Shown: positions 26,042-42,419, counted from the first letter of the stretch. The stretch: DNA of 64,000 nt from Laetmonice hystrix (GCA_965235115.1 OZ249436.1:22508001-22572000); one strand, 5' to 3'. Program-made: numbers and translations. Notes: generated by a model not told the origin, from the sequence alone.

Positions 26042-27918
26042 ACCATCCGTATTTGTTCAAAAAGATGTCTAAAAGTAATCCCTGTGCCGATAGATTTGTA
26101 TTCATTCAAAAAAGTGAATACAGCAGCGTCGCCGTCCAGATATGGAGCTCGCTCGTGCATGCACTGACCGACTTTTTCAAGGCCGACAAGCTATGCAATT
26201 TGTGAATCGAACCGTCCCTGAGCCCAGGCGACGACGTTTCATTCAACGATACAGCTCGTCGACCGAGAATTAACTAGGTCTATCTGCATTTTTTTCAAAA
26301 TGTTTTTTTCAAGGTCTATCTGCAGCAACCGATCCTGCTTTTACATCCACCCATTTAATGCCAAGGCCACTGTCACAAATTAAGGTCTATCTCCATTTTC
26401 TGAAATCCACCTCAGTATCACATAGGTCTATGTCGTTTTAGAGTTATTGAAGGAGTTGTCCCAGTATAGAGTCTATTCAACATAGGATGAAATGTCACAC
26501 CGGCGGTGAGCCGGGGATCTGGGGGCCTATGTGTGTGTTGCGGGGGGGGGGGGGGGGGGCTGCGCTAATAAATGATAACGCAGCATGGATGGAAACATCC
26601 TCCCCCGCTCGGGGTTGAACCTGCAGTTGCAGCGATGCCCCTTGACAACTCAAGATGGGATGGAAATGGCGGGCGGGAGACAAAAGTACACCGGCGGGAA
26701 ATTCGAAGGGGACAAACACAGTGAGCCATATTATAAATAAATAAAGAATATTTTCGTTTGCTTTGATATTTATGTTAAATATCCTGGGGCACGGACCTAC
26801 CAGGGACTCGGACAAGGGGTGGTATTTTTAGGCTAAAAAAGACTAAATAGGCCGACATGTAGTAAACTTGGTCTTCGTCGACTTGGAGTTACCAGACTAT
26901 GACCGAACGTGGATCCATGCATCTTGAGTTGTCAAGGCCATAAAAGGGTTCCTCTCGATCGGTTCATGACAACTCAAGACCAACGTATTAGGATTTGAAA
27001 TATTACGGCTTTGTGTGAATACTTTAGTCCCGTGGCATCGCGCATCCTTCATTCTACCCCTTGAGCTCGGCCCTGGCTAAACTGTGGGAGGTTGACCTTG
27101 AAGTCAACCTCATGAATATTAATAGGACCTGACATCGGCGTCATAGACTCGCCACTAACACCCACTAAACGGTCTTCCCCGTGGTGTAGGCTTTCCCGCG
27201 AAAATGCCCCATAGCATATATACACAAATATGTCCCTCCCTGACAATAGAGCTTGTAGGACTCTGACTTGATATACGGTTTAACACGCGAAATTCCAAAT
27301 TTTATCCCCCCTGATTTCAGCATCGACCGTCACTTCGCTTCCGGTGGCATCCGAACTGGCACCGACCTGCTCGGCCCGGTGTCGCTGGCGCCAGCTGTCG
27401 GTCTCGGCCTCGGCCGTGCCCGTGGGTTAACGTTAAGGGTCGGGATAAGAGTATAGTTAGTGTGTGTTCTTGTAGCCCTGTCAACTCAAAGTTTTTCCCC
27501 CCACTCTCTCAGACAGTGCTGTAATCTGATTGGTCGTCACTAAACACACGGAGAATTATTACCTAGGAGGTAAGCAGGTGACGCTGTGAAGCACTCCCCC
27601 ACGAGAATAGGCGTGGTGTCGTGAGGGGGGGGGGTCTCTATTTTTTTTTTTTTTTTTTTTTTATTATGCATATTTTGACAGGGGAACCCACTCGACTTGT
27701 CAGCCGCCATTAATGTAGGGCCCTGTGATACATTAACGTATTATACACTTTCACACATACATTCTACATTACCTTGTATGTACAGTATATAGTTTTACAC
27801 ATCCTTCTTAGCACTTAACAATTACATATAATATTTCTGCACTTACACATTCACTTTCGTATACAATTTAACCCATGCTTCTTAGAGCTTCTTACGAGAT
27901 AAATCTATCTTGTTCCCC

Positions 27919-30782
27919 CTAGTGTCTTTCATTCATGTACATATTATTATAATATTTTTTAATCTCTACTTTAAATTCCTTCTTGTCCTTTAGGTTTCTC
28001 ATGTAAACTGGTAGTTCGTTCCAAAGTGTAGGCCCAGTGTAGCTATTACATTTCTTAAAGTGCTCACTCCTAGGTCTGGGTACTTCTAATAGAACTGCAT
28101 CATGTGCTCTTGTAATGTTTGATTGAGCTATTCTGGAAGTGTTTTCAAGTACCTCAAAAAAGGTAATCTTTTGCATCATAATTAGTCGTCTATATTTACA
28201 TGGGAGTAACTTTGCTTCCTGGTGTAGCTGAAAAGTATTGAATAATCTATCCTTGTTCAATGCAATCTTTAACCCATTGTTTTGTATTACTTGCAGTTTG
28301 TGTTTATAATATTCAGTACACGTCCCGTTAAAAATGTTACCATATTCGAGATATGGTAAAATCATTGATTTGAATATAGTTAATGCAGTCGTTTTATTTA
28401 CATATCGTCTTAATTTAGATAACATATATACCTTGTGTCCGGCTTTCTTGATACAATTTTTAATGTGATGATGGAATTGAAGTTTATTGTCGATAACTAT
28501 CCCCAAATATGTAAATTTGTTAACAAATTCTAGATTGTTGTTATTAATACTGATATGGATATTTCTATCTTCGTCACTGCTTCTACCAAAAAGCATACAT
28601 TTCGTTTTCTTTACATTAACTGTAAGTTTATTGTTTATAAACCAAGTATTCAGTTTATTAATGTCGTCAGTAATTTGTGTTACCAATTCTGGCAAACTAA
28701 AACTGTGTGCTACCATAGCTGTGTCGTCGGCAAATGCACTTAAGTCTGATTTTATATCGGAGTCCAATATGTCATTGACATATAATAAGTAGATCAACGG
28801 GCCAAGAATTGTACCTTGCGGTATGCCGTAATTGATAACTTTACATTCTGATTCAATTTCATTGTGTCTTACAAATTGCTGTCTATCTTTTAAGTATTCT
28901 ATTATCCATGATTTGCTTTTATCTATTATACCCACATTTTCTAATTTAGTGGCTAGGATATCATGGTTGATACAATTAAATGCTTTTTTGCCAGATCCAG
29001 GAAAACTATAATGCTGTATTGGCCACTATTCTTATGTTCAAATATTTGGTTTACAACTTTGTTGACCGCACCAGTTGTTGACTTTCCCTTCCTGAATCCA
29101 TTTTGTGAAGATAAAAAGAGGTTATTGCTTTCCATATAGTTGTAGACAATTTTGTTTACGTGTTTTTCCAAGATCTTTGATGGCAGGGGAGTGTTAGAGA
29201 TCGGTCTTAAGTTATTCAAATCCGTTGGATCTCCTTTTTTAGGTACTGGGGTAACTCTAGCCACTTTAAATGCCGTAGGAATTTGGGAGTTTTCCAGCGA
29301 GTAGTTGTAGAGCCTAACAATGATGTCTGGTATTGCATTGAATGCATCGACTAGGACTCTCGTGCTAACTCTATTTAATCCCGATGACTTTGATAAAGAG
29401 ATTTCATTCAAGATATTACAAAGACTGTCGACTGTGAATTTGCCAAGGTCTGCTAATACTGTATTGCTCTTCTGGACTGTAGGTCTGTTGATTGCCGAGG
29501 GATGTGGTAATCGGTCGGCTAGATCCTTTCCTATATTAATAAAATAGTCATTCATCAGTTCCGTCGCCTCTTTATCTTTACACATGTTACCATTAACTGG
29601 ATTACGTATTTCATCGATTTTAATATTTGACATCTCCGGTATTAAAGTTTTAATATCTTTCCAGAATTTCTTTTGGTCTTTTTCGTGTTCTTTTAATTTA
29701 TTCAACATATAGTTTTGCTTAGCATCTCTGACTAGTTTATTGTAGGTTCTCCTTGCATGGCAGGCCCTATCATAGTTATATTGGGTTTTACTTCTACGGT
29801 AGATCCTAAATAAAATATCTCTTTGCAGCTCAAACTCTGTTAGTTCCCTATTTAACCACTCGGGTCGTTGGCTTCCAACTTTAACCTTTCTATAGGGGCA
29901 CATGCGGTCAATTTCAAACTCAATACCTTTGTAGATCATATCCCACATGTCATTTATATCTTCCAGTAGATCAAGGACTGTCCAATCTAAATTTTTTAAT
30001 CTACTTTGGAATAGCTCCTTATTATAGTTGCTAAAACGTCTGCAATAAATAAACTTCTTATCTCTAACGGTATGTTTCCTTTTTTTGATAATATATACAG
30101 GTAGGTGATCGCTAATATTGTAGTTTATGCATCCCGAGCTAAATATGTTCTTGATATTGGTAATAACTACATCTATTAAGGTACTACCTTTAAGAGGAAT
30201 TCGGGTATCGTTTTCTATAATTTGTTTTAGTGTATAGTCATCTTCTAAGCCAGCAAGTAGTTTATACGAATCGGCTTTTTTATCCGAATAATCTAGGTTA
30301 AGATCTCCAATGATGACCACTTCACATTTATGTAAATCATTAATAGTGTTTATACATTCTCTAATTGTTTCGATAGCTATTCCTGGGGTTCCCTTAGGTG
30401 GTCTATAGCAGTTTAATAGAATTATTCTCTTAGCATTATTACCCTTGATAATAAGGACTTGCAGTTCTATGTGGCAATTCGAAATTTGGGTTACTACCTG
30501 GAAATTTATATCTTCTTTAACATAAGTGCAAGTACCCCCTCCCCTTTTGTTAACTCTATCATTACGAATTATCTGGTATCCTTTAATCTGTACCATTGAT
30601 GATGGTAATTCAGGTGACAACCATGTTTCACTCAGGCACAGAATGTTCACGTATGGGGTAAAGTTATGTACAATGCTATCGAGTTTAGGTAGTAAACTTC
30701 TGACGTTGAGATGCATAATTTTAAATCCCTTCATCATTGAGAGCTCTTCCGCTGATATGTTCACTTGTTCATTAGTACACAT
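27919..30782 (-). CDS. LINE ORF2: apurinic endonuclease + reverse transcriptase (~953 aa), one frameshift at 28984-28989
   Basis: APE motifs HLNVRSL, LCLSETWL, RGGG, YRPP, GDLN, IDVV, SDH. RT motifs PKKGD..NLRPIS, QNGFR, FLDLAK-AFN, GIPQGTILGP, FADDT, YLGI. C-terminal LWNELP is typical of L2/Crack/CR1-group ORF2. Confidence 0.93.
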
Positions 30783-31431: not shown

Positions 31432-32082
31432 TTAGCGGGGGTGGAGAGTAATGTTCGTTTTGGCGGCTTTTGCTATGAGGGCGGACCACAGTTTTTGAGT
31501 TGCCGTATTTGGATGTAGACCATCATAAAATCTATTGTATTTATTTATCCTGCGTCCGTTGGTTAGGCTATGTATTGTGTCCATGGTCCATGGTGCCGTT
31601 AGTGAGTCGTCTCTATTCATCATGGTTACGACTTGATTGAGGGTTATAACTCCATCGTTTATGACTGCCTGAGCAGTATCAAAATCTGTTATGTGACCAC
31701 GGTACGTGTTGTATACATTAATGTCCAGCCCGGTGAGTTGGCAGATTATAACACATTTGGAGTAACGTTGTAGATATGTTTTCGCCCAGGTAAAGTAATC
31801 TGTTAACACATCTACCATATTTGGTATTTCGGTAAAAGTTGGAGTGATTTTACCAGTTGGCGATTTAGAAGTTAGGTTGTTCACACCGGCCATCAGATAT
31901 ATAAAATCGAATGATCCTGACTTCAAATAATGGTCCGCTGCTTTGACTGCCGTAGTAATGGTTGCACCAGGTGTGGTGGAAACTGTGAAGTTAGTCGGGA
32001 TATTGCGGTTGGCACATTCCAGGTTTATAAAATATTCAAGTCCTCTGCCTCGTGAGTCACATATGAGTAAGGAGGATGTCAT
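31432..32082 (-). CDS. SGNH/GDSL-hydrolase (esterase-like) ORF of the LINE, 216 aa
   Basis: Block I LLICDSRG, block II PGA, block III IYLMAGVNNL, block V DGLHP. The ATG lies 1 nt after the ORF1 stop (TAAGATG). Confidence 0.8.
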   Translation of the reverse strand: MTSSLLICDSRGRGLEYFINLECANRNIPTNFTVSTTPGATITTAVKAADHYLKSGSFDFIYLMAGVNNLTSKSPTGKITPTFTEIPNMVDVLTDYFTWAKTYLQRYSKCVIICQLTGLDINVYNTYRGHITDFDTAQAVINDGVITLNQVVTMMNRDDSLTAPWTMDTIHSLTNGRRINKYNRFYDGLHPNTATQKLWSALIAKAAKTNITLHPR

Positions 32083-32083
32083 C

Positions 32084-32983
32084 TTACAGATCCTGTCTAA
32101 CCTTTTGGAGTAAATCGCCAAACTTGTTTTGGCCTGGACAGTTGGAGTCAATGCGGGAGGCTTGCATTAGGGTGAGACCACATCCATAGAAGGGGTCGCG
32201 GGTTGCTTCGTACAGTGAGCAGTTCCCGGTGGCCTTGAGTTTCTCCAACAGGCTGGTGTTCTGTTCAAATTTAGCCTTGACAATAGTTTCCAACTTTTCA
32301 AGTTTCTTTGTTGTCCATGCGTCAGTGGTCTTAATTCTTCTTGCAATTTTGTGGGCTTCAAACGGGTCCGTAGTGGCTAGTATAGACTCCGCTAGTACTT
32401 GTTCACCATGTTCCACGGCCTTCTGATGGCAGAATGCTTGCTCAGCACTGTTATATGTGACACCCTTGAGTTCAATATTACATGGGTACATGTTAGACAT
32501 GTAGGACTCCTGACCTTGGAAGGCGATACCACTCTGTATATGTAGGGTTTTCGCTTCAGTGAGGGAAAGATTGTGTGGTAGGTGTTGGAGGTCAATTTGA
32601 GTGTATCGCCTGCCGTCAATCACAAGGGCCTCTCCTTTCAGTTTGGCATTCAGGTGTTTAATTTTAGCCAGGTTGTATATGTGTTGCATTACATGCCGCC
32701 TTGATTGAGCTTTGGGTGAGAGGTCATCAACAATAGAGATCCTTGCCCAGCGTTGGTGGTCCTTAAGCCTCTTGACCTTGTTGTATACGTCACTCTTTGA
32801 GGTGGTGCGGCTAAGTTGTATTAGAATAGGTCGGGGGTTGGTTCTATTTTTGTTCCTGTCCCCCAGTCTGTAGACAGCACAACAATCAGCTATTGTAGTT
32901 TCAGTGCCCAAATCAGTTAGTAAGTCGCTTACTATTACTTTCACATTTTCTCCATTTCTTTCTGGGATCCCATGTATGATTAA
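32084..32983 (-). CDS. LINE ORF1, 3' part: RRM-like + CTD + C-terminal NADAR (YbiA/DUF1768-like) domain
   Basis: LIIHGIPE..YRLG..PRPILIQL..ISIVDDLS (ORF1p RRM/CTD pattern), then YMSNMYPC..TYNSAEQAFCHQKA..W..IVKAKFEQN..LKATG..LYEATRDPFYGCG..GQNKFGDLLQKVR (NADAR pattern, ~32530-32087). Confidence 0.85.
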   Translation of the reverse strand, partial: LIIHGIPERNGENVKVIVSDLLTDLGTETTIADCCAVYRLGDRNKNRTNPRPILIQLSRTTSKSDVYNKVKRLKDHQRWARISIVDDLSPKAQSRRHVMQHIYNLAKIKHLNAKLKGEALVIDGRRYTQIDLQHLPHNLSLTEAKTLHIQSGIAFQGQESYMSNMYPCNIELKGVTYNSAEQAFCHQKAVEHGEQVLAESILATTDPFEAHKIARRIKTTDAWTTKKLEKLETIVKAKFEQNTSLLEKLKATGNCSLYEATRDPFYGCGLTLMQASRIDSNCPGQNKFGDLLQKVRQDL

Positions 32984-35900
32984 TAGAGCTGTAGAGGATC
33001 TCTGAAAAAGCCTCTAGAAATTGAAATGACCCCTACCGGGGTAGAACAAAGCAAAACATGTTTTTTTTTGGAAGTACTTCACATAAAGTGTATGGATTTT
33101 GGTGTTGTACCATTGGCAACTGAGTACAACACCCCTTTCTGAGACGGTTTCCATGGCAACAAGGGATTTTTTAAAAACTAGCAAAAAAAACATAAAAATA
33201 TCTATAAATCTGGATGTATTTCCTGAATTTCTCTGAAACTTTGGTCAATCATTCATCATTAAGGGTAACACCCGATGATATTATGACCTTGACCTGAGTC
33301 AAGGTCAAGGTCACATTATTCGAGGTCAAACATTAAAAAATGATGGAAAATGTGGCTTGGACATGATGTAACCTCTTGTGTTTAGTCAGAGAGAGTATTT
33401 CTTTATCAGTTTCACATGCCAATGAACAGAACAGACCATTAACTACACTTTCATATGAAATTTTGGCAGTCATGGTCACTGTTACCATGGTAACCAGGAC
33501 ATCATCACCAGAGAGGCTGTTCTGCACTAAGAGGCATGGGGAACAATGTGTCATTTTACAGCATTGGGTACATTTTGAAAAGGGCTTTCATTGTCTCCAT
33601 AGAAACACTTCTCTGTGAGCACAACAAAAATCAACTATGACCTTGACCTTGGTCCAAGGTCAAGGTCACATATATCAAGGTTATATTCAAAAAATGATGG
33701 AAAATGTGGCTTTTACATGATGTAAACTCTTGTGTTTAGTTGGAGAGAGTATTTATTAATCGGTTCTTGAATGCCAAAGAACAGAACAGATATGAAACTT
33801 CACTTTGATATGAAACTTTGGCGGTCATGGTCACTGTTGCCATGGTAATCAGGACATCATCATCAGACAGGCTGTTCTGAACTAAGTGGCATGGGGAAAA
33901 ATGTATCATTTCACAGAATTGGTTTGAAAAGGGCTTTCATTACCTCCATAGAAACATTTCTCTGTGAGTGCAAAAAAAATCAGCTATGACCTTGACCTTG
34001 GACCAAGGTCAAGGTCACACATATATCAAGGTCAAATTTTTAAAAAATGATGAAAAACGTGGCTTGTACATAATGTAAACTCTTGTGTTTAGTCAGAAAG
34101 ATTATTCATCATGAAGTTATCATCATCACTAAAACTATCATCATTCAAGTTTTGCACAATGCATTCAAAGAATGCGGCCATTGCCTTATTAAATCACCTG
34201 TAGGTATCCAATAGCTTCCGTTACCATGGTTTCTAGGGTACATAAGTATAAACACATTACAGTGGTTAAATTACTTCTATAAGATAATACATGAATGACA
34301 ATTGAAATTATCTGCAAGTTAAAAAAAGTACAAGACAGGTTACTGGAATTGCCTAGCAATGCATTCTGGGACAGGCTTGCAGGTAGTTCATTAAAGTATG
34401 TCCTTGAAAAATAGGTGAAGGTCAAGTGCTTCTGTGCAGTATAAATTAGGTTGTCAGACTAACAACTTTGTAAATATTTATGTACATTCACACATAACAT
34501 AGATACATAGATACATAACTGAAGAATAATAACTTGAAACTACCACCAAACAAGCAGTTTCAAGTCATGCTACTGGTTCTGTTGCCTAGCAACAATCATT
34601 CCAGCACTTCTGAGAGAGGCTTTAGAAGCGCGACCTTGCTCTGGTAAGATTTAACTCTATTTTGATGTACTGGTGATAATAATTCACAAAAATACCTCGT
34701 CTACATGCAACGAGGACTGTGGAACTTGGAATAGTAATTTTTTATAAATGTTAATGTTTCATAAAACACAAAAAATAATTTAAAAAACCATGAATGATTA
34801 CTGTGCAGCAGACAAATATTTATGTTTACCTTTTGGCATGTAGTTCTGGGAAACTGCTCTTTTTGTTATTAACATGAACAGACTATATGCAACACATATT
34901 CAGCATAAGGAAGAACTGAGGAGTTACTTTTGTCATTACTTGCACCCTGGAACATTTTGACATAGTGATTCCATAAATTATGTCATTTTTTTTTTATTTG
35001 AGAATTACTTCACAGTAAATTTCAAGATTATATCAGCAAAATTCTGGACATGATTCAACCAACATGATTCTGTTGCACATAACCTTCATGCAGTTTGTTG
35101 ACTCTATTAGCTTTTATTCAGTTAAACATGTATAGCATCTTTTACTTCCATAAAGGAAAGCTCATTGTCTCGAGTTTCCTGTTTTGTACAGTTTTTAACA
35201 GCCTAAATGGAAAAGACATAAAGGTATATAATATAATAATTACAAGGTGTTTTGAAACCTTCCTGAAAAGAATTGGAAATAACTTTCTTTGAAATTACTT
35301 AATTTTGTTCTGCTTAGGCACCCAGAATAATTTCTTCTGTTTTGCTAAAGATTGTCTGGTAAATGTTTGCAGTGGGTATACAGTAATTATGGAATGGTCA
35401 TTTGCAGGTCCACTATGCCAGGATGGGTGATAATGAACCACAACTTAAAAAACCTTGTGCATGGCAACCAGGAGCATGTATAATATGTTTTAAGGCTATT
35501 GAAGAGTCAGAGCAAAATGTGACCAGGAACCCAACGAAAGAAGGCATTTCCAAAATTCTGACTGCATCCCAGCAAAGACAGGATTTGGTTTATCAAGTTA
35601 TATGGCCCCTCAAAGATGATTTTCTACAGTCGAAACATGAAGTTGTATTCCATAGAGACTGTAGGGCAAGCTATACTTCTAAAAGAAATATATCCCATGC
35701 CTCAGCGACTTTGTCCACGGAGGATGCATACAGGTATCCTGTGAAAGCAACAGCAACTCATGAAGGTTACAATCTCCGAAATGAAGGGACATCCTTTAAT
35801 GTAAGGACCGACTGCTTCATATGTTCATATGGTAAAAAGAAGGAAACATTAACTTCAATAACAACAGGTACAGGAGAAGAAACAAGACTAAAAGTTATTG

Positions 35901-38900
35901 AAGCTGCCATAAAGAGGAAGGATGAGAGAATTCACAGTCGAATGTTGCTATACAGTGATCTCTTTGCCTATGATGCAAAATACCATAGATCATGCTATTC
36001 ACATTACATCTCGGAAAGAAACATAAAAGCAGCACGACGCCGGAATGAAAACAGCAGGGGGTCTATACACGACCAGGCATTCAGTATCGTCGTTGAGGAG
36101 CTCAAGTCCAAGTTGATTTCATCTAAATCTGTCATGCGACTATCACAAATATTAGATCTCTACATATCAAAAGTCTCCCAACTTGGAGCCTCAAAAGATG
36201 CCTGCACATACCGATCTTGGAAATTAAAGCAGAAACTGCAGGCAACGTTTAAAGGAAAGCTAGTGTTTGTTGAGCAAAGAGGATATTCTGATATCGTTTG
36301 CTGTAGTAAACTCAACATAAAAGATGTTCTAAAGAAAGCAGTGAAAATTGAAGATGGAAGTAGGTCTCCCAAACAAGATGATGGCGACGATGATGATGAT
36401 GATGATGACTATGATGTGACACTCAAAGTTTCCAGTAATGAAAGACAGATACTGTATCAAGCAGCAACCATCATAAGAAACAAAATAAATGAAGTAAAGT
36501 GCAACTCTGACATGTACATGTCTCCTACTGACCTCAATATATCGGAATGTGCAGCTTTCGTGCCAAAACCAGTCCATGATTTTGTTATGTGGTGTTGTGA
36601 TAAAAATGCCTATGACAATATTGATTTTGAATCCAAGTCTCCCAACATCAGCATAATATCAATTTGTCATCAGATGATTGCAAAGAGTCGCCAGATCTTG
36701 ACACCAGTGACATTAGGAGTAGGCGTTAGTCTCCAGCATCAGTTTGGTAGCAGAACCCTTATTGACCAGCTCCATGCCTTAGGAATTTCAGTTTCCTATG
36801 ACGAACTGAGGAAATTTTTGACATCTGCTGCAGAATATGGAGCTGCAAACACAAAGAGGATTGCAGATGTGAACACTTCAAAACAGGAGATTGATGCAGC
36901 CATCGACAATTTCGATCAAAATGAAGAGACTCTGGATGGGACGCAAACCACTCATGCTTTGGTTGGTGTGATATATGACAGAAGTCTACCAGAATACCAG
37001 AACAGAAGGATGGAGATTCCACGACTAGCTGAGAGGGCACTGCCTGCCACACACCACCTCAATGATCAACTTGATGCAGTTGCAAGGTATTCACCTTTAT
37101 GCTAATCAGACATATCCGATTGCTATGTGAAAATCATAACAGCAATCATGATAATTTCCTTCATTCTTCTGGGTCTTTATCTGTTAGTAATTCTGTGCTG
37201 GGTATATTGATGATCTCTGAGACATATGCTAGCTGTAAAATCCCAAATCGTGTGTATTTCTCTAGATGTTACACCCATTCGTTCAAAAGAAATTACAGAT
37301 AACTAAATGGATACAGATAACTAGATCGTTCAAAGAAATTACAGATTATCCCAACAGAATGGGTTTATATTGCTGTACTAGTGGTATAGAAGCCCTAGTG
37401 GATACTAAACTCTAGGCGAGCTTCACTCCAGTGGCATACTGTTGGTGGGGATGATGTCTCTCCCCCAAGGTTGACGATTACACCATAATATAGTGTCTTT
37501 GGCAATCCCCCCCCCCCCCCGTTTAGGATATTCAAAATAAACCACTGCCCGTGCCCTGCTCTAACCTCAAAAAGGGGATCCTTCAGTTTTAATGACCAAG
37601 TTGAGTGTTTGTCTACTTGCAATGTAGGTATCCATTTAACCACTGAGTGGCCTCCTCCTACTGGGTTATTGCCCCAGACCCTTTGTGTCATTCTGGGTTT
37701 CAACAGTTCTTAAGATATGTCAGTTGATGAATTACATTTACATTATGGGTATTGGCCCATGTTTGACACAGTACTCATCCTAAATTCAGTCCAAGCCCGT
37801 ATTACTGTTGACGCAATGCCCCCTGTGTATTTTGGCTAAAGGTGATTAAGATATGTGGTTGTTCCAGGTACCAGAAACCACATATCCGACCTGAACCACC
37901 GCTGTATTCGGGCAAAGAATTAACAGATTTGGACAATTCAGACATGTTCATACATTCTGATTTTACCTGGAAACTTCTTAAGTGCCAAAAACTGGAACAC
38001 CAGATGGTACCTGCATGGACTGGTTTCAATACATTGGTATCTAAAAATGACGGTCCGGTAGCCAAGATACATTATCTTCCATTTCTTAGGTCTCCACCAT
38101 CTGACATGTCCACCATCTACACAATGCTGATGAGGTTAGTAGAGATTGCAGAAGAGCGTGGTCAGCATCACATTCTTTGTACAGCAGATATGGCAATCTA
38201 CAGCAAAGCACAGGAGATTCTGTGGGCGAGACCAGGATCTCTGGATGGTAAAATCACAATGAGAATTGGAGGAATGCATATGACCATGGCATTCATTGCA
38301 AGTATTGGGAAACTCTTCAGCGATGGTGGTCTACTTGCTATCCTGTCTGAATCTAGTGTGTATGCAGAATCAACAGCCAGGATGATTTTGCAAGGTAAGC
38401 AGGTCTCAAGAGGAATAAGAGCCATAAACCTAGTAAATGAGGCTTTGTTCAGGCTACTTTGGAAAGATTTCCAGAAATGGGCAGAGAGCCGAGGGTATGT
38501 GATCATCAGTGATGCAGCCGAGCATGTTCTGCTGAGTATGCAACAGGCCTGTGAGTCGAGGAATGAAGAACTGATGCTTCATCTGATGGATGAATTCCAC
38601 CATCATCATCTGCCTGCAATTCAACAACTATTGGCAAGCTTCATGGAACAGGGACGAAAAGCATCAGAAACATTTTTGTTTTGGGAAAGGTTTCTCAAAG
38701 GAGCAGATACACTTCTGCATTTACTCAGAGCAGAAAGAGATGCTGACTTCAATCTGCATTTGGCTGCGACATCAGAAACACTACCCTGGTTTAGAGCTGC
38801 AGGAAAGTCCAACTATGCCAAGTATGTGCCATGCTACCTGGCAGATATGAAGGCCTTGGAGAAATTACATCCACAATCCTACCAACATCAGCAACAGGGA

Positions 38901-40071
38901 GGTTTCTGTGTGAGAAGGTCTTCAAACACCCGCTTCAATTCTGTGGCAACAGACATGGCTTTGGAACAGTCAATAAACCGTGAAGGCAAAGGTCGAGGTG
39001 GTGTTGTTGGGTTGACACTGCGAAAAGGTGCCCTGACTCGCTGGTTGATGACACGTCATATCACAGCTGAATTTGCAGAAAACTTTCGTTCACTGTGTGA
39101 ATGCACTAAGAAGACAGTTAACCACCATGAAGACTTAGGAAAGAAGCGAATGATTCGAGATGAAAATGATGTATTGAAACTTATGGATGTCATAAGCAAT
39201 AACCAAGACCCATTTGATCTGGAAACAGTCCCAAAGGAGCTCACCAACATTATATCTGGACAGGTGGCATCTGCTGCAGTGGCTGACAGTATTAAGGATT
39301 TCCTTGATGTAGGTTCATCTCGGCATTTAGATTTTGTGAAGCATCGCCTTCTAGAACCCAGGTCAAAAAGTTTTTGGGCCCCTCAGACAAGACACAAGAC
39401 ACAAACCTTTGCTGATATGAAAAAGACAATCTCAACAAGGGAGAATGAGAAGCTGATGCTTGATCCAGAAATCCTCTTCCGTCGCCTGCTTGCAGTTTCA
39501 AGACACAGAGAAGTTAACTTAGAACAACTGCTTTCTCATGAACTGTCAGGAGTACCTCTTGCGTTGTTCAAAGAGGATGGTACTATGCGAAAGACTGTAA
39601 AGTCAGAACTGTTGAAGAAAGTTGAGGATAATTCACAAGTCTTGATGGCTCCTCCTCCAGGATGTGCAACAGCAGGCTACATCATAGACGGAATGTCACT
39701 ATTACACAGTTTAAAAGAAGATTCCTTCAATACCTTTGAAGACCTTGCCCTTCAAGTTCTAAAAACCCTGATATCGATCCTTCAGGAAGCAGCACATGTT
39801 GTTCTGGTATTTGACAGGTATGACAAAGAACTTTCAACAAAGCAAGGAGAGCGAAACCAACGTGGACCAATGGCTGCCTCGCATGCTATAAGTAAATTCA
39901 GAGTTGTGCCTAAGTACCGACTCTTCATGAGAAATGAAAAGAACAAAGCTGCACTTGCTGAATTTGTCTGTGATTTCCTTGAACAGCAGCTGCCTAGCGA
40001 GTTGGATGGTACAAAGCATGTCTCTCTTGCTGGAGGCTATCAGGATGGACGGATCTGTAAGCTGATAAGTC
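32984..40071 (+). mobile_element. Academ DNA transposon, 3'-truncated, inserted in LINE ORF1
   Basis: Starts TAGAGCTG exactly where ORF1 breaks. Has ~350 bp subterminal repeats (33283, 33637, 33986) and an Academ-type transposase cut off at 40071. No right TIR. Confidence 0.8.
35423..40071 (+). pseudogene. Academ transposase, exons 35423-37086 and 37868-40071, C-terminally truncated
   Basis: The GT-AG intron joins in frame (VAR/YQKP). Motifs CxxC..HxxC twice, AAIDNFD, TADMAIY, RIGGMH, MALEQSIN, IIDGMS, FDRY are collinear with the 54882-59747 protein. EEADTR, GCD and the Cys cluster are missing. Confidence 0.85.
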
Positions 40072-40464
40072 GTTAAACTTGCGTTTGTCATTCTCTATCT
40101 TCTCTAGTCTACTCTCCAGGGTATCAATACGCTCCACCAGTTGAGAGTTTTCAGCTCCGACGCGCACTATTTGTTTGTTTAATTCTTTGATAGTTTCCTC
40201 TTGTTCATCTACTTTGGCTTTTATCTCCTTCATTTCTTTAACACTTTCAGAGACTTCGTTCAGCTGTGCACTCATCTGATTCACATTGTTATTTGTTGTC
40301 ATCATTAGTACATAGAGGTCTCGTAGGGTCGGCGTATCGTCTGTATCTGGCTGGAGGGGTCTAATTGTTGGCGCCTCTCCTGGTAACTCGCTCACCTCTT
40401 TGTCCGTGTTCATATCTATTGTAGGATTCCTGTTTGTAGCCTTGGATCTTGTCCTTTGTGACAT
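40072..40464 (-). CDS. LINE ORF1, 5' part (N-terminus and coiled coil)
   Basis: Heptad-rich helix ..VSESVKEMKEIKAKVDEQEETIKELNKQ..LVERIDTLESRLEKIENDKRKFN joins in frame to LIIHGIPE at 32983, giving a 430 aa ORF1. Confidence 0.85.
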
Positions 40465-42419
40465 TTGGATTGTTCTTGGTTCGCACAGCTTACAGGTTGT
40501 CTTGTTGTGGTTCTGGATCTCGTTAAATCTCACAGTAATGTCCCGGTTAGCTAGTTAAAAGTGATTTTCCTGAGAGCCCGCGGTCGACACGTCTGGTCAC
40601 TCTGACGCCATATTTGATTAACAGTATCCCACTTCACACGATCATCAAGACCACATTCTGACTCGGCCTACTCCTGTGGAAAAAGATGGTATTTTAGGAC
40701 ATTTAGTGCTGTGACAACAGTTAACCTATGAAATTGAAAATAAAACCTGAAAGTGTTACGACTCTGAATTTATGAAATGCTGGCAGCCACCACATTTATT
40801 TACAGTTCATGAGATTATAGTACATACCTGCAGTAAAGACCCAACCTCTGCTTTTACATGTCTGCTCGATACTTTATACAACATGTATGTATGTTGTAGC
40901 ATCCAACAACTGTGTGTAATCTATTCCATTCTCCTGCAAAAAAAAACTGATCCCATTCACTTTTGCCTAACCTACAAGCCCCTAATCACACAGATCTACT
41001 CTACGTACTTCAAATTATTTAAATAGTGCACTTCATAAAATTTTTATCATGTGGATCTTGGACAGACACATCGACAATAATAAATGGCAATGGCTGCTGC
41101 CAAAGTACTTTGGGCGAAAGACCACCAAAAGGCTATTGCCAAAGTACCAATCAAAATACAGTATTTCTACTTTGGCAGCAACAAGCCAGGGTAATTGCTG
41201 CCAAAGTACCAATGGGCGACTGGCTTACAAACTGCTTGTTGCCTGATCCTGCCAAAGTACTTTGGAAGCAAGAAACATGTATACGGTCAACTCGGGGTTG
41301 ATGCATGTAACAAAGTACTGTGTCCGCATTATAAAGCCACACGATTGTGCAGAAGACCGTGGGCTTCAGTATCAAAGTATACTTTGTCAGCAACTTTATC
41401 AGGAACTCTTATTGCAGATGTGGACGAAGAACTTTGTCTGGAAGCGCTGTTACCAAAGTCTATGGGTACACATGCACTGCAGTGTGAAAGAACAAAAGTT
41501 GTTAGGGGACGTTCAGACTATTACCGCGTAATATCAGTGGCGGATCCGGGGGTAGGGAGTTAACCCCCCTAGCCAATTTTGTCTTTTTTCACCATTGAAC
41601 GATCCTAATTGTCCATGACTACTCCCCTCCCCCAGAAAATGCTTCCCTTAACCCCGCCTCCTTCCTAAATCCCGCATCCGCCCTATATCAATACGGTTTT
41701 TAATACCAAAGTAGGCCTACTTTGACAGGAAAAAGTGTGATTAGGCCTATACTACAATTTCTAAGCATGACCTACTGAGCCAACGTCCTTTTTGTCTGGA
41801 AACATGAAATCTCTGGACCTGAGATTTAGTTTTGACACACTTTTTCATGACACACAGGGACATTTTCGATGGCGAAGTACTTTGTCAGGTGACGCTGTCT
41901 TAACGTGACGTTTATTGACAGAATAAAGTCAGGAAGTCAAGTGGTACTATATTTTGAACATGAGCTTTATTGCCAACGACCATTCACATTAAACATAGAG
42001 AATTACAACTGTCGGTGTGGAGAAAATCTTAGGTGTAAAAGCAAAAGGTATACTCGTAGTTTGCTGACGTAGTCAAGGTAATGTAGGCCTACTTATATAC
42101 ATGTAGGCCTATATAATTTGGAGATGCCGATTAACATGCAAAACTGTGTAACCCTGAAAAAAAGCCTTTCAGAACTTCCTTTGCGAGTTACACTAAAACA
42201 GCCTGCGGTAATTTGACCTGAATCTGTATAGTAATATGGAACACTTGGAAAAAGTGTACACCAGTGGCAACAGTAATTTGGTAATCGCAAAGCAGCCTAA
42301 CCCCCTACGCCTTGCTACCACAGTATACTTTGGCAATAACAATGCAGCCTAACGCCCTGTCCCTTGCTGCCACAGTACTTTGGCAATATGATAATGACGT
42401 TAAATATCATGCACAATAG

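Follow-up and report, generated by a model that had tools for sequence, protein, structure and literature searches.

NADAR proteins, among them a eukaryotic enzyme of the YbiA subfamily, hydrolyse guanine-ADP-ribose on DNA (PMC11543638), and the same adduct is hydrolysed on RNA (PMC11833690). According to the available part of PMC12945103, cytidine-ADP-ribose is also hydrolysed by some NADARs, including a sponge enzyme. The YbiA subfamily is defined by a glutamate of the E125 type, and roles in contacting ADP-ribose are known in the Phytophthora enzyme for E43, K50, R79, W89, R93, E125, D130 and W133, the K50-type lysine binding the ADP-ribose phosphates (PMC11543638). In the BC4488 subfamily, which holds the DarT1-associated antitoxins, the glutamate is replaced by aspartate (by histidine in phage NADARs) (PMC11543638). 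As far as the accessible text of PMC11543638 and PMC11825919 describes them, these antitoxins and the phage orphan NADARs that neutralise DarTG1 provide the working analogy for counter-defence, in which nucleic-acid ADP-ribosylation is undone by a NADAR on a mobile element.

NADAR domains also occur in retroelements. In the available text of PMC12477816 (Genome Biol 2025), ORF1 proteins of several Crassostrea gigas LINE families, classed as 'Tx1' in Repbase, are mentioned as having a YbiA-family NADAR, and one Gypsy LTR lineage of Ectocarpus as having a NADAR at the N-terminus of Pol. An esterase is the accessory enzyme of the Type IV ORF1 proteins (ORF1p) of CR1/L2 elements such as zebrafish ZfL2-1 (PMC3905857; PMC4120745). 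In the Repbase set of PMC3905857 it lies behind a coiled coil inside ORF1p, and an RRM is present in none of those ORF1ps.

The LINE copy analysed here lies in a stretch of 64,000 nucleotides of Laetmonice hystrix (GCA_965235115.1 OZ249436.1:22508001-22572000), referred to as the window. Like the C. gigas families as they are described in PMC12477816, it comes from a lophotrochozoan-type animal and has an ORF1 with a YbiA-type NADAR. It differs from them, as far as they are known by that description, in lacking an L1/Tx1 look, in an ORF2 whose nearest solved relatives are R2 proteins, and in additionally possessing an SGNH esterase ORF and a PHD-bearing homologue. With the Ectocarpus Gypsy lineage, as mentioned in the same text, it shares the gain of a YbiA-family NADAR by a retroelement, but there the element is of the LTR class, the host protein is Pol and the position is N-terminal; the Gypsy NADAR was probably acquired independently. 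A preliminary description of this DNA had put forward the LINE ORF1-NADAR fusion as possibly new. This novelty is weakened by the passing mention for oyster LINEs in the available text of PMC12477816; what is added here is that, at the level of sequence, the ORF1-NADAR trait is shown to be widespread and selected, with its catalytic residues intact.

The LINE copy in the window

ORF1 is found in two pieces on the minus strand. Translation of 40464-40072 gives 131 aa, and that of 32983-32084 gives 299 aa and a stop codon (32084-32086, minus). The open 430-aa ORF1 that had been proposed by rejoining them is real: two other members of this family (L002 and L003), also found in the genome of the window, have an unbroken 430-aa ORF1 from ATG to stop, with an identical junction (KRKFN followed directly by LIIHGIPE). 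When the intact copies are aligned with the window by BLASTN, the alignment breaks between 40072 and 32983 with 0 bases lost or duplicated. It follows that the intervening 7,088-bp segment (32984..40071, plus strand) was inserted later.

By its break and its repeat copies, the insertion is a truncated copy, with one end only, of a large repeat that resembles a DNA transposon. Its left end is a terminus of the repeat, in that 13 further full-length matches start at query position 1 and 16 matches start within the first 10 query bases. The right end has a single other occurrence, within a structure of ~13 kb that has inverted copies of the left end. No target duplication was found at the exact break in the BLASTN comparison with the intact copies, and the two long ORFs of the insertion (P0007 and P0008) have no Pfam match.

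The 5' part of the LINE copy (40072..40616, minus) consists of ~152 nt of 5' UTR and ORF1 codons 1-131, and is 99.5% identical to positions 1156-1700 of the copy L031. Homology to L031 and a further copy, L032, begins at 40616-40619 of the window and stops on the 3' side at 27643-27645, where the element closes with AATAAA and an A run of 22 nt (27641..27665, minus). ORF2 (27919..30782, minus) encodes the N-terminal APE endonuclease and the reverse transcriptase of an APE-type LINE (Pfam Exo_endo_phos_2, Exo_endo_phos and RVT_1), and for the ORF2 protein P0015 Pfam gives these three and nothing else. In the window it is broken into two overlapping frames, because 2 bp that the intact copies do not have are inserted at 28988-28989. 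L031 holds an intact ORF2 of 953 aa, nine full-length ORF2 copies have open frames of 960 aa, and 5'-truncated copies are many. Between the window copy and the full-length copies identity is 99.1-99.5%; the window copy is a recently inserted, now dead member of a young LINE that has three ORFs and a poly(A) tail.

The best solved relatives of ORF2 are R2 proteins (score for R2 3.3e-9), and human L1 ORF2p gave no match to it even at E<=10. In the homologue P0097, the endonuclease is preceded by a PHD finger. This homologue, the esterase ORF and the absence of an L1 ORF2p match point indirectly to a CR1-like element and away from L1/Tx1. The C-terminal part of ORF2, in which no Cys/His motif was seen by eye, has a WN-x-LP-type motif that we take to be CR1/L2/Jockey-like. 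The poly(A) tail counts against that class, since it is presumably untypical of CR1/L2.

Membership in the Tx1 clade of the L1 group was considered and rejected on the lack of an L1 ORF2p match at E<=10 and, by eye, of a zinc knuckle, which together are a crude proxy and not a phylogeny.

Architecture of ORF1p

The N-terminal piece (residues 1-131; 40072..40464, minus) has, by translation and AlphaFold2 (AF2), a disordered N-terminus and then one long helix, and gave only noise matches of coiled-coil type in Pfam. The modelled coiled coil is helix residues 47-128, at about 40081-40326. It is followed by the RRM and CTD (residues ~132-285; 32522..32983, minus), recognised by Foldseek from 2YKO and 2LDY, and by the NADAR domain, which comprises the last ~142 residues (289-430; 32087..32512, minus).

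Against the Pfam NADAR profile PF08719, residues 158-299 of the 299-aa piece score 91.9 bits (cut-off 35.1) with an E-value of 6.6e-26, and profile positions 9-162 of 163 are covered. The closest solved sequences in HMMER are 8bau_A (E 2.1e-12) and YbiA 2b3w (E 0.0012). The AF2 model of ORF1p has a mean pLDDT of 86, with values above 90 in the NADAR part. In Foldseek it matches 8BAU (E 4.8e-10, TM 0.74, rmsd 2.4, identity 27%), E. coli YbiA 2B3W (E 5.3e-7, TM 0.70) and the human L1 ORF1p trimer 2YKO (E 3.6e-7, TM 0.67), as well as 2YKP, 2YKQ and the RRM-CTD structure 2LDY. ORF1p is therefore, in its predicted structure, of Type II (L1-like), with a coiled coil, an RRM and a CTD preceding a C-terminal NADAR domain. 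The same order had been given in the preliminary description and is borne out by the model and Foldseek, and its assignment of the last ~150 aa to NADAR agrees with both the profile, above the cut-off, and the fold of 8BAU and YbiA.

The long N-terminal coiled coil, RRM and CTD are shared with human LINE-1 ORF1p (2YKO), from which the window ORF1p differs in having no match to Pfam Transposase_22 in its RRM and CTD at E<=0.01 and in having an extra 142-residue C-terminal enzyme domain. The Phytophthora nicotianae NADAR (8BAU) and E. coli YbiA (2B3W) have the same fold, subfamily glutamate and E/K/E set, but are free-standing, whereas the window domain forms the C-terminal end of a retrotransposon protein that binds RNA.

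Distribution and selection

A search of the genome with the 299-residue ORF1 piece gave 131 scored matches from 787 candidates, with identities of 28-99%. Stop codons are absent from 123 of the 131, and about 110, as counted from the table, cover nearly all of the 299 query residues. At least 18 families with 25-39% ORF1 identity to the window family retain the fusion. For the NADAR part of 10 between-family pairs, pS is saturated (0.73-0.84) and pN is 0.17-0.37; this pN is lower than that of the N-terminal region in all 10 pairs and lower than that of the RRM and CTD in five. In public data, a profile search with a limit of E<=1e-30 retrieved 2,077 cluster representatives. RRM, CTD and NADAR are present in one stretch in 132 of the best 150 of these, and all 32 longer public relatives that were scanned exceed the PF08719 cut-off.

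Judged from these genomic and public sequences, the ORF1-NADAR fusion is shown to characterise a large group of LINEs and to be under long-term purifying selection. The alternative raised in the preliminary description, a one-off capture, does not agree with the 131 matches, the 18 families, the public layout or the low pN relative to saturated pS.

Related domains also occur outside LINE ORF1: P0137 and P0174 in the public data are tandem NADAR-only proteins.

Active-site residues

In the HMMER alignment with 8bau_A, the contacts E43, K50, R79, W89, E125 and D130 are kept in the window domain, whereas R93 is changed to K, W133 to Y, K75 to H and Y84 to T. The catalytic set of the YbiA subfamily (equivalents of E43, K50 and E125) is complete in the window family as E312 (32441-32443), K319 (32420-32422) and E390 (32207-32209), all on the minus strand. 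The acidic residues of the SAE and E-x3-D motifs, which had earlier been reported as retained, are the equivalents of E43, E125 and D130. On this alignment the NADAR active site is intact in the window family, which, unlike the BC4488 subfamily, keeps the glutamate.

E312 and E390 are invariant in all 18 diverged families of the genome, as are S294, N295, K369, F370, T392, G398, G400, N417 and G420 in the non-redundant set of 18. Position 319 is variable: K and C each occur in 7 families, R in 2, and W and Q in one each. A basic residue stands at the R79 equivalent in 14 of the 18 (K 10, R 4). Of the best 150 public representatives, 147 have the E312 glutamate and 144 the E390 glutamate, the remaining 6 having gaps at E390, and 119 have K or R at position 319. 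At the R79 equivalent 41 of the 150 have a basic residue (K 33, R 8), D being commonest (42). Because K319 is not fixed in the group, the substrate may be unlike that of the studied enzymes, or some families may have altered or lost activity.

The ORF between ORF1 and ORF2

A separate ORF of 216 codons (31432..32082, minus) lies between ORF1 and ORF2, its ATG one base past the ORF1 stop. It was overlooked in the preliminary description. D9, S10, R11, G39, G66, D187, G188 and H190 are invariant in an alignment of eight families, and the AF2 model has a pLDDT of 89. Foldseek gave 101 PDB matches at E<=0.001, the best being 1YZF (E 3.2e-7, TM 0.71); the matches listed are GDSL/SGNH-type hydrolases except for three designed scaffolds and one entry titled alpha/beta hydrolase. 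Pfam matches were below threshold, being found in 5 of the 8 members with a best E of 5e-5 and the gathering score unreached. By its modelled fold, this ORF encodes an SGNH/GDSL-type hydrolase, the second accessory enzyme of the element. As in Type IV ORF1p, a Ser/Asp/His SGNH hydrolase is encoded upstream of ORF2; the window esterase, however, has a short ORF of its own and no coiled coil, and the ORF1p encoded upstream of it is of the RRM type and bears a further enzyme.

Proposed function of the NADAR domain

The NADAR domain is predicted to be an active ADP-ribosyl-nucleobase N-glycosidase, which would strip ADP-ribose from guanine, and possibly from cytosine, in RNA or single-stranded DNA. 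Its tethering to multimeric ORF1p would enrich it on the RNA and the nascent cDNA of the element itself, where it would remove in cis those adducts that would stop translation, reverse transcription or synthesis of the second strand. More speculatively, the adducts may be made by host or microbial ADP-ribosyltransferases, and their removal would then be counter-defence. There is, in our estimate, about an even chance that the window holds a dead copy of a young CR1-like LINE whose ORF1p NADAR removes base ADP-ribose in cis. Unlike in DarT1 systems, no cognate transferase is encoded beside the domain. DarT (PF14487) and Enterotoxin_a-type (PF01375) profiles had no match in the genome, in a search in which the controls were silent too and exon-split genes are hard to detect.

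The domain may instead be active on something other than an ADP-ribosylated base of the element's nucleic acids, for instance a small molecule, an NAD-derived group, free ADP-ribose derivatives or an NAD-type RNA 5' end. It belongs to the subfamily of YbiA, whose sole characterised function in vivo, as an N-glycosidase on riboflavin intermediates, counts against removal of base ADP-ribose, and the physiological targets of orphan NADARs may not be ADP-ribosylated DNA (PMC11543638). The variation of the K50-equivalent lysine between families also fits another substrate, as does the role in RNA processing suggested in the available text of PMC12477816. Nevertheless, all NADARs tested, YbiA included, took guanosine-ADP-ribose off RNA, phosphate-end ADP-ribosylation is not cleaved by NADARs (PMC11833690), and the fusion partner is an RNA-binding, RNP-forming protein, which points to a nucleic-acid substrate. 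Another substrate is considered unlikely.

A less probable explanation still is that the domain mainly binds, reading ADP-ribose or poly(ADP-ribose) with little or no catalysis and guiding the RNP to integration sites where chromatin is ADP-ribosylated or DNA is broken. PARP activity is linked to LINE-1 integration, and the K319 position is variable, both of which favour such a module. A pure binder, however, would not need the active-site glutamates, and their invariance in the 18 families and near-invariance in the best 150 public representatives argue against it. That the NADAR is a passenger, a host exon captured once and without a role in the life cycle of the element, is scarcely credible, being contradicted by the open frames, by retention at 25-39% ORF1 identity in at least 18 families, by pN against pS and by the layout common to 132 of the best 150.

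Beyond removal of base ADP-ribose in cis by the window family, the general claim, that the RNPs of a large radiation of LINEs, in genomes of annelid and mollusc type, contain an active nucleic-acid de-ADP-ribosylase, is a doubtful one. If it were true, animals would possess a so far unrecognised defence against retrotransposons in which RNA or DNA bases are ADP-ribosylated, and the LINE enzyme would have evolved as an antidote parallel to the phage NADARs that act against DarT1. Many of the 'metazoan NADARs' of unclear role (PMC11125620) would then be transposon proteins.

Results

Reconstruction of ORF1

Two minus-strand pieces, 40464-40072 (131 residues) and 32983-32084 (299 residues, by translation of the window), had been joined in the preliminary description into an open ORF1 of 430 residues. 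When the C-terminal ORF1 piece was searched against the assembly that the window comes from (627 Mb in 35 contigs), two copies (99% identical) were found in which ORF1 is uninterrupted over 430 codons from ATG to stop, and in both of them the junction (...KRKFN-LIIHGIPE...) is read straight through. BLASTN alignment of two full-length copies to the window places the break exactly at 40072|32983, with zero bases lost or doubled. The two pieces were therefore rightly rejoined, and 32984-40071 was inserted secondarily; the reconstructed 430-residue ORF1 is real and robust.

No target-site duplication accompanies the insert (32984-40071, plus strand, 7,088 bp). Its left end corresponds to a repeat-family terminus, as 13 further full-length matches of 80-99% identity start at query position 1. 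Its right end is internal sequence with one other occurrence only, in a structure of ~13 kb on the contig C8 that is flanked by inverted copies of the insert's left end. Tandem repeats of ~354 bp lie near the end (33280-34120), and the two long ORFs (35387-37105 and 37812-40073) belong to no Pfam family; the ESM Atlas neighbours of one of them, P0008, are clusters without names. The ends suggest that the insert is a truncated copy of a large TIR element, with only one terminus present. A piggyBac-type TTAA target duplication at the ORF1 break was rejected, because both TTAA are native LINE sequence across which the intact copies align, with no duplication. Helitron-type ends were also rejected, because the termini fit neither orientation.

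Identity and fold of the C-terminal domain

The last 142 residues of ORF1p match Pfam NADAR (PF08719) with an E-value of 6.6e-26 and 91.9 bits (cut-off 35.1), which bears out the C-terminal NADAR domain proposed earlier. Among proteins of solved structure, the closest in sequence are the NADAR of Phytophthora nicotianae (8bau_A, E 2.1e-12) and YbiA of E. coli (E 0.0012). An AlphaFold2 model of ORF1p, for which 18 diverged family members served as input, has a mean pLDDT of 86, and of more than 90 in the NADAR part. Its top Foldseek match in the PDB is 8BAU (E 4.8e-10, TM 0.74, rmsd 2.4 A), followed by the human LINE-1 ORF1p trimer 2YKO (E 3.6e-7, TM 0.67); YbiA itself (2B3W, E 5.3e-7, TM 0.70) is also matched, so the structural comparison with YbiA that had been suggested finds the NADAR fold. 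A long single helix occupies residues 47-128. From the Pfam, AlphaFold2 and Foldseek matches, it follows that ORF1p consists of a disordered N-terminus, the long helix, an L1-type RRM, the CTD and NADAR, and the domain assignment is right.

Distribution and selection within the genome

The own-genome search with the 299-residue C-terminal piece returned 787 candidates, of which 131 were scored, with identities from 99% down to 28%. Stop-free matches make up 123 of the 131, and approximately 110 (counted from the table) cover nearly the whole query within open frames of ~400-630 codons. A set of 18 families was obtained from 50 loci by removal of ORFs shorter than 380 residues and of any with more than 70% of its 5-mers in common with one already kept; the ORF1 identity of the 18 retained proteins to the window's family is 25-39%.

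In the alignment of these proteins, S294, N295, E312, K369, F370, E390, T392, G398, G400, N417 and G420 are invariant in all 18, W354 is retained in 17 and D394 in 16. Ten between-family pairs were compared by Nei-Gojobori counts. In the NADAR part the synonymous sites are saturated (pS 0.73-0.84), so that exact between-family dN/dS values are not derivable, and pN is 0.17-0.37. NADAR pN is lower than that of the N-terminal region in all ten pairs and lower than that of the RRM and CTD in five, which indicates that the domain evolves as slowly as the ORF1p core. The sole within-family pair (96% identical) has a dN/dS of 0.38. These comparisons of coding sequence provide evidence of selection on the NADAR domain across families. 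With the open frames, the at least 18 families, the low pN against saturated pS and the public relatives described below, the fusion is a family trait and not a one-off capture.

Active site

The ADP-ribose contacts were taken from the account of the Phytophthora enzyme in PMC11543638 (section 12) and read onto the alignment to 8bau_A, whose deposited chain numbering equals the paper numbering plus 2 (verified on eight aligned residues). The window family retains E43 (E312 in ORF1p), K50 (K319), R79, W89, E125 (E390) and D130; the retention of the conserved acidic residues, noted earlier, is thus confirmed for the counterparts of E43, E125 and D130. R93 is replaced conservatively by K, as is W133 by Y, K75 is aligned with H, with a K adjoining, and Y84 is aligned with T close to a gap. 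According to the mutagenesis of E. coli C7 described in PMC11543638, the equivalents of E43, K50 and E125 are required for guanine de-ADP-ribosylation, and the same account gives E125 as the residue defining the YbiA subfamily.

Position 319 is K in seven of the 18 families, C in seven, R in two, W in one and Q in one. This variability counts against a uniform textbook active site group-wide, although the lysine is present in the window's own family. In the seven families in which the phosphate-binding lysine is replaced by C, as in all the others, both catalytic glutamates are invariant, and the Cys-319 families may form a subgroup that differs in substrate or mechanism.

Public relatives

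A profile from the 18 ORF1 proteins was searched against 1.84 billion cluster representatives, and 2,077 were matched at E ≤ 1e-30. Among the best 150 of the 2,077, the RRM, CTD and NADAR lie in one stretch in 132, and in 104 the match also takes in the greater part of the coiled coil. The glutamate at position 312 is retained in 147 of the 150 and that at position 390 in 144 (the other 6 have a gap there), while K or R occupies position 319 in 119. The esterase profile (see below) matches none of these 150, that is, no esterase fused to ORF1-NADAR was found among them. All 32 longer public relatives scanned pass the Pfam NADAR cut-off. As a lead on taxa, the ESM Atlas points to eukaryotic NADAR clusters of 415-489 aa, with Annelida the commonest phylum among the very few labelled members.

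Several representatives carry additional sequence. In P0269 a C-terminal extension runs on into ORF2-like sequence. Extra N-terminal stretches of ~240-300 aa (for example in P0168, P0187, P0197 and P0209) and C-terminal ones of ~250-350 aa (for example in P0166, P0173 and P0206) match neither a Pfam family nor the esterase profile. Two further representatives, P0137 (4,240 aa) and P0174 (1,075 aa), consist of seven and five tandem NADAR-only repeats, respectively, without RRM or CTD, each repeat being closely related to the LINE NADAR (~E 1e-16 to 1e-26). They could be host genes that acted as donors, host domestications, or gene-model artefacts.

Layout of the element

Full-length copies align to the minus strand of the window from ~40616 to ~27643, which amounts to 5.9 kb once the insert is left out, and are 99.1-99.5% identical to it. 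On this strand, a 5' UTR of ~152 nt precedes ORF1, and a middle ORF of 216 codons (31432-32082) starts one base past the ORF1 stop. A spacer of ~650 nt separates the middle ORF from ORF2, which has 953 codons in intact copies and contains Exo_endo_phos_2, Exo_endo_phos and RVT_1; the 3' end has AATAAA and a 22-nt A run.

In Pfam the middle ORF obtains sub-threshold scores only, but the D-S-R, G, G and D-G-x-H-P motifs do not vary in the alignment of eight families. When the corresponding profile was searched against PDB sequences, it gave chance-level matches only, and the fold search decided instead: the model (pLDDT 89) has 101 Foldseek matches in the PDB at E ≤ 0.001, and nearly all matches listed are GDSL/SGNH-type hydrolases. 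By its predicted fold, the product of the middle ORF is an SGNH esterase. Of 20 longer loci, which were picked via their ORF1-NADAR, 12 contain this ORF; 18 of the 20 have an ORF2 with homology along its entire length, 11 of these being open for at least 900 codons. The esterase ORF stands alone between ORF1 and ORF2, without a coiled coil, and starts one base past the ORF1 stop or overlaps it; this arrangement is the same in the window, in the full-length copy L031 and in the LINE loci L034, L035, L038, L043, L045, L046 and L048. In contrast, esterase-type ORF1ps described in the literature contain a coiled coil and lack an RRM partner.

The window copy is dead twice over, since the insert interrupts its ORF1 and two extra base pairs at 28988-28989 disrupt its ORF2. 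Identities of 99-100% and open frames of 960 codons are seen in nine full-length copies of ORF2, and 5'-truncated copies are numerous; from these sequences, the family looks recently active. Other families are ~32-36% identical to the window family in ORF2 and 33-39% in ORF1. In the locus L045, ORF2 is 59% identical, but ORF1 is only 28% and the esterase only 27% identical, which suggests that the ORF1-esterase module has been exchanged between LINE lineages.

Discussion

Even with a threshold of E ≤ 10, the ORF2 of the element does not match human L1 ORF2p, while R2 proteins match at up to 3.3e-9, a crude proxy and not a phylogeny. In one full-length homologue, a PHD finger precedes the endonuclease. 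With the esterase ORF, these features argue for a CR1-like element. A poly(A) tail is unusual for CR1/L2 and was counted against this placement. PHD and esterase are given as known accessory domains of CR1-like LINEs in the survey PMC4120745; the 'Tx1' label of the oyster elements in PMC12477816 was also counted against a CR1-like placement of the window element.

Full-text literature searches on NADAR, YbiA or DUF1768 in retrotransposons or LINE ORF1 gave PMC12477816 (Genome Biology 2025) as the sole relevant report. It records the LINE ORF1-NADAR fusion in passing for oyster LINEs, so that the novelty supposed in the preliminary description is reduced; it also places a NADAR at the Pol N-terminus in an Ectocarpus Gypsy lineage and proposes a NADAR role in RNA-intermediate processing. 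NADAR is unmentioned in the pertinent passages of the Jockey-superfamily ORF1-type survey (PMC4120745) and of the esterase paper (PMC3905857), the latter describing esterase-type ORF1ps, none with an RRM, as unique among ORF1ps in enzymatic function. As databases already include the fusion, the value of the present analysis lies in the exact reconstruction, the intact active site, the selection evidence, the three-ORF layout with its separate SGNH esterase, and the breadth of the trait, which is shared by hundreds of copies, by no fewer than 18 families and by 132 of the 150 best-matching public clusters.

The substrates from which NADARs cleave ADP-ribose include guanine, at N2, in ssDNA (PMC11543638) and guanosine in RNA (PMC11833690), and several of these enzymes, a sponge NADAR and YbiA-type proteins among them, are described as acting on ADP-ribosylated cytidine too (PMC12945103). 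On the most likely reading, the domain is an active base-de-ADP-ribosylase, predicted to be held on the LINE RNP, where it would free the RNA template or the nascent cDNA of adducts. The variable position-319 lysine leaves room for two other readings. It is unlikely that the domain acts on a small molecule or an RNA end instead of an ADP-ribosylated base, and quite improbable that it is an ADP-ribose-binding recruitment module. The functional idea of the preliminary description, ADP-ribose removal within the RNP, appears reasonable by analogy with these enzymes, while its extension to counter-defence is plausible but unsupported. A cognate transferase sought in the genome with PF01375 and PF14487 gave no match, and the control genomes gave no match either.

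The SGNH esterase is described in PMC3905857 as so far the sole enzymatic function in LINE ORF1 proteins. The NADAR would be a second, well-conserved LINE ORF1p enzyme domain, with known nucleic-acid repair chemistry, tethered to an RNA-packaging protein. The family is suited to testing, being young, with intact copies and active-site residues known from solved structures, and substrates and assays exist. NADAR-bearing animals include molluscs and other invertebrates, in which the role is called unclear in PMC11125620, a text with no occurrence of 'transpos'. The ORF1p-tethered NADAR offers a directly testable handle both on the chemical insults met by the LINE RNP and on the purpose of animal NADARs, the question posed in that paper.
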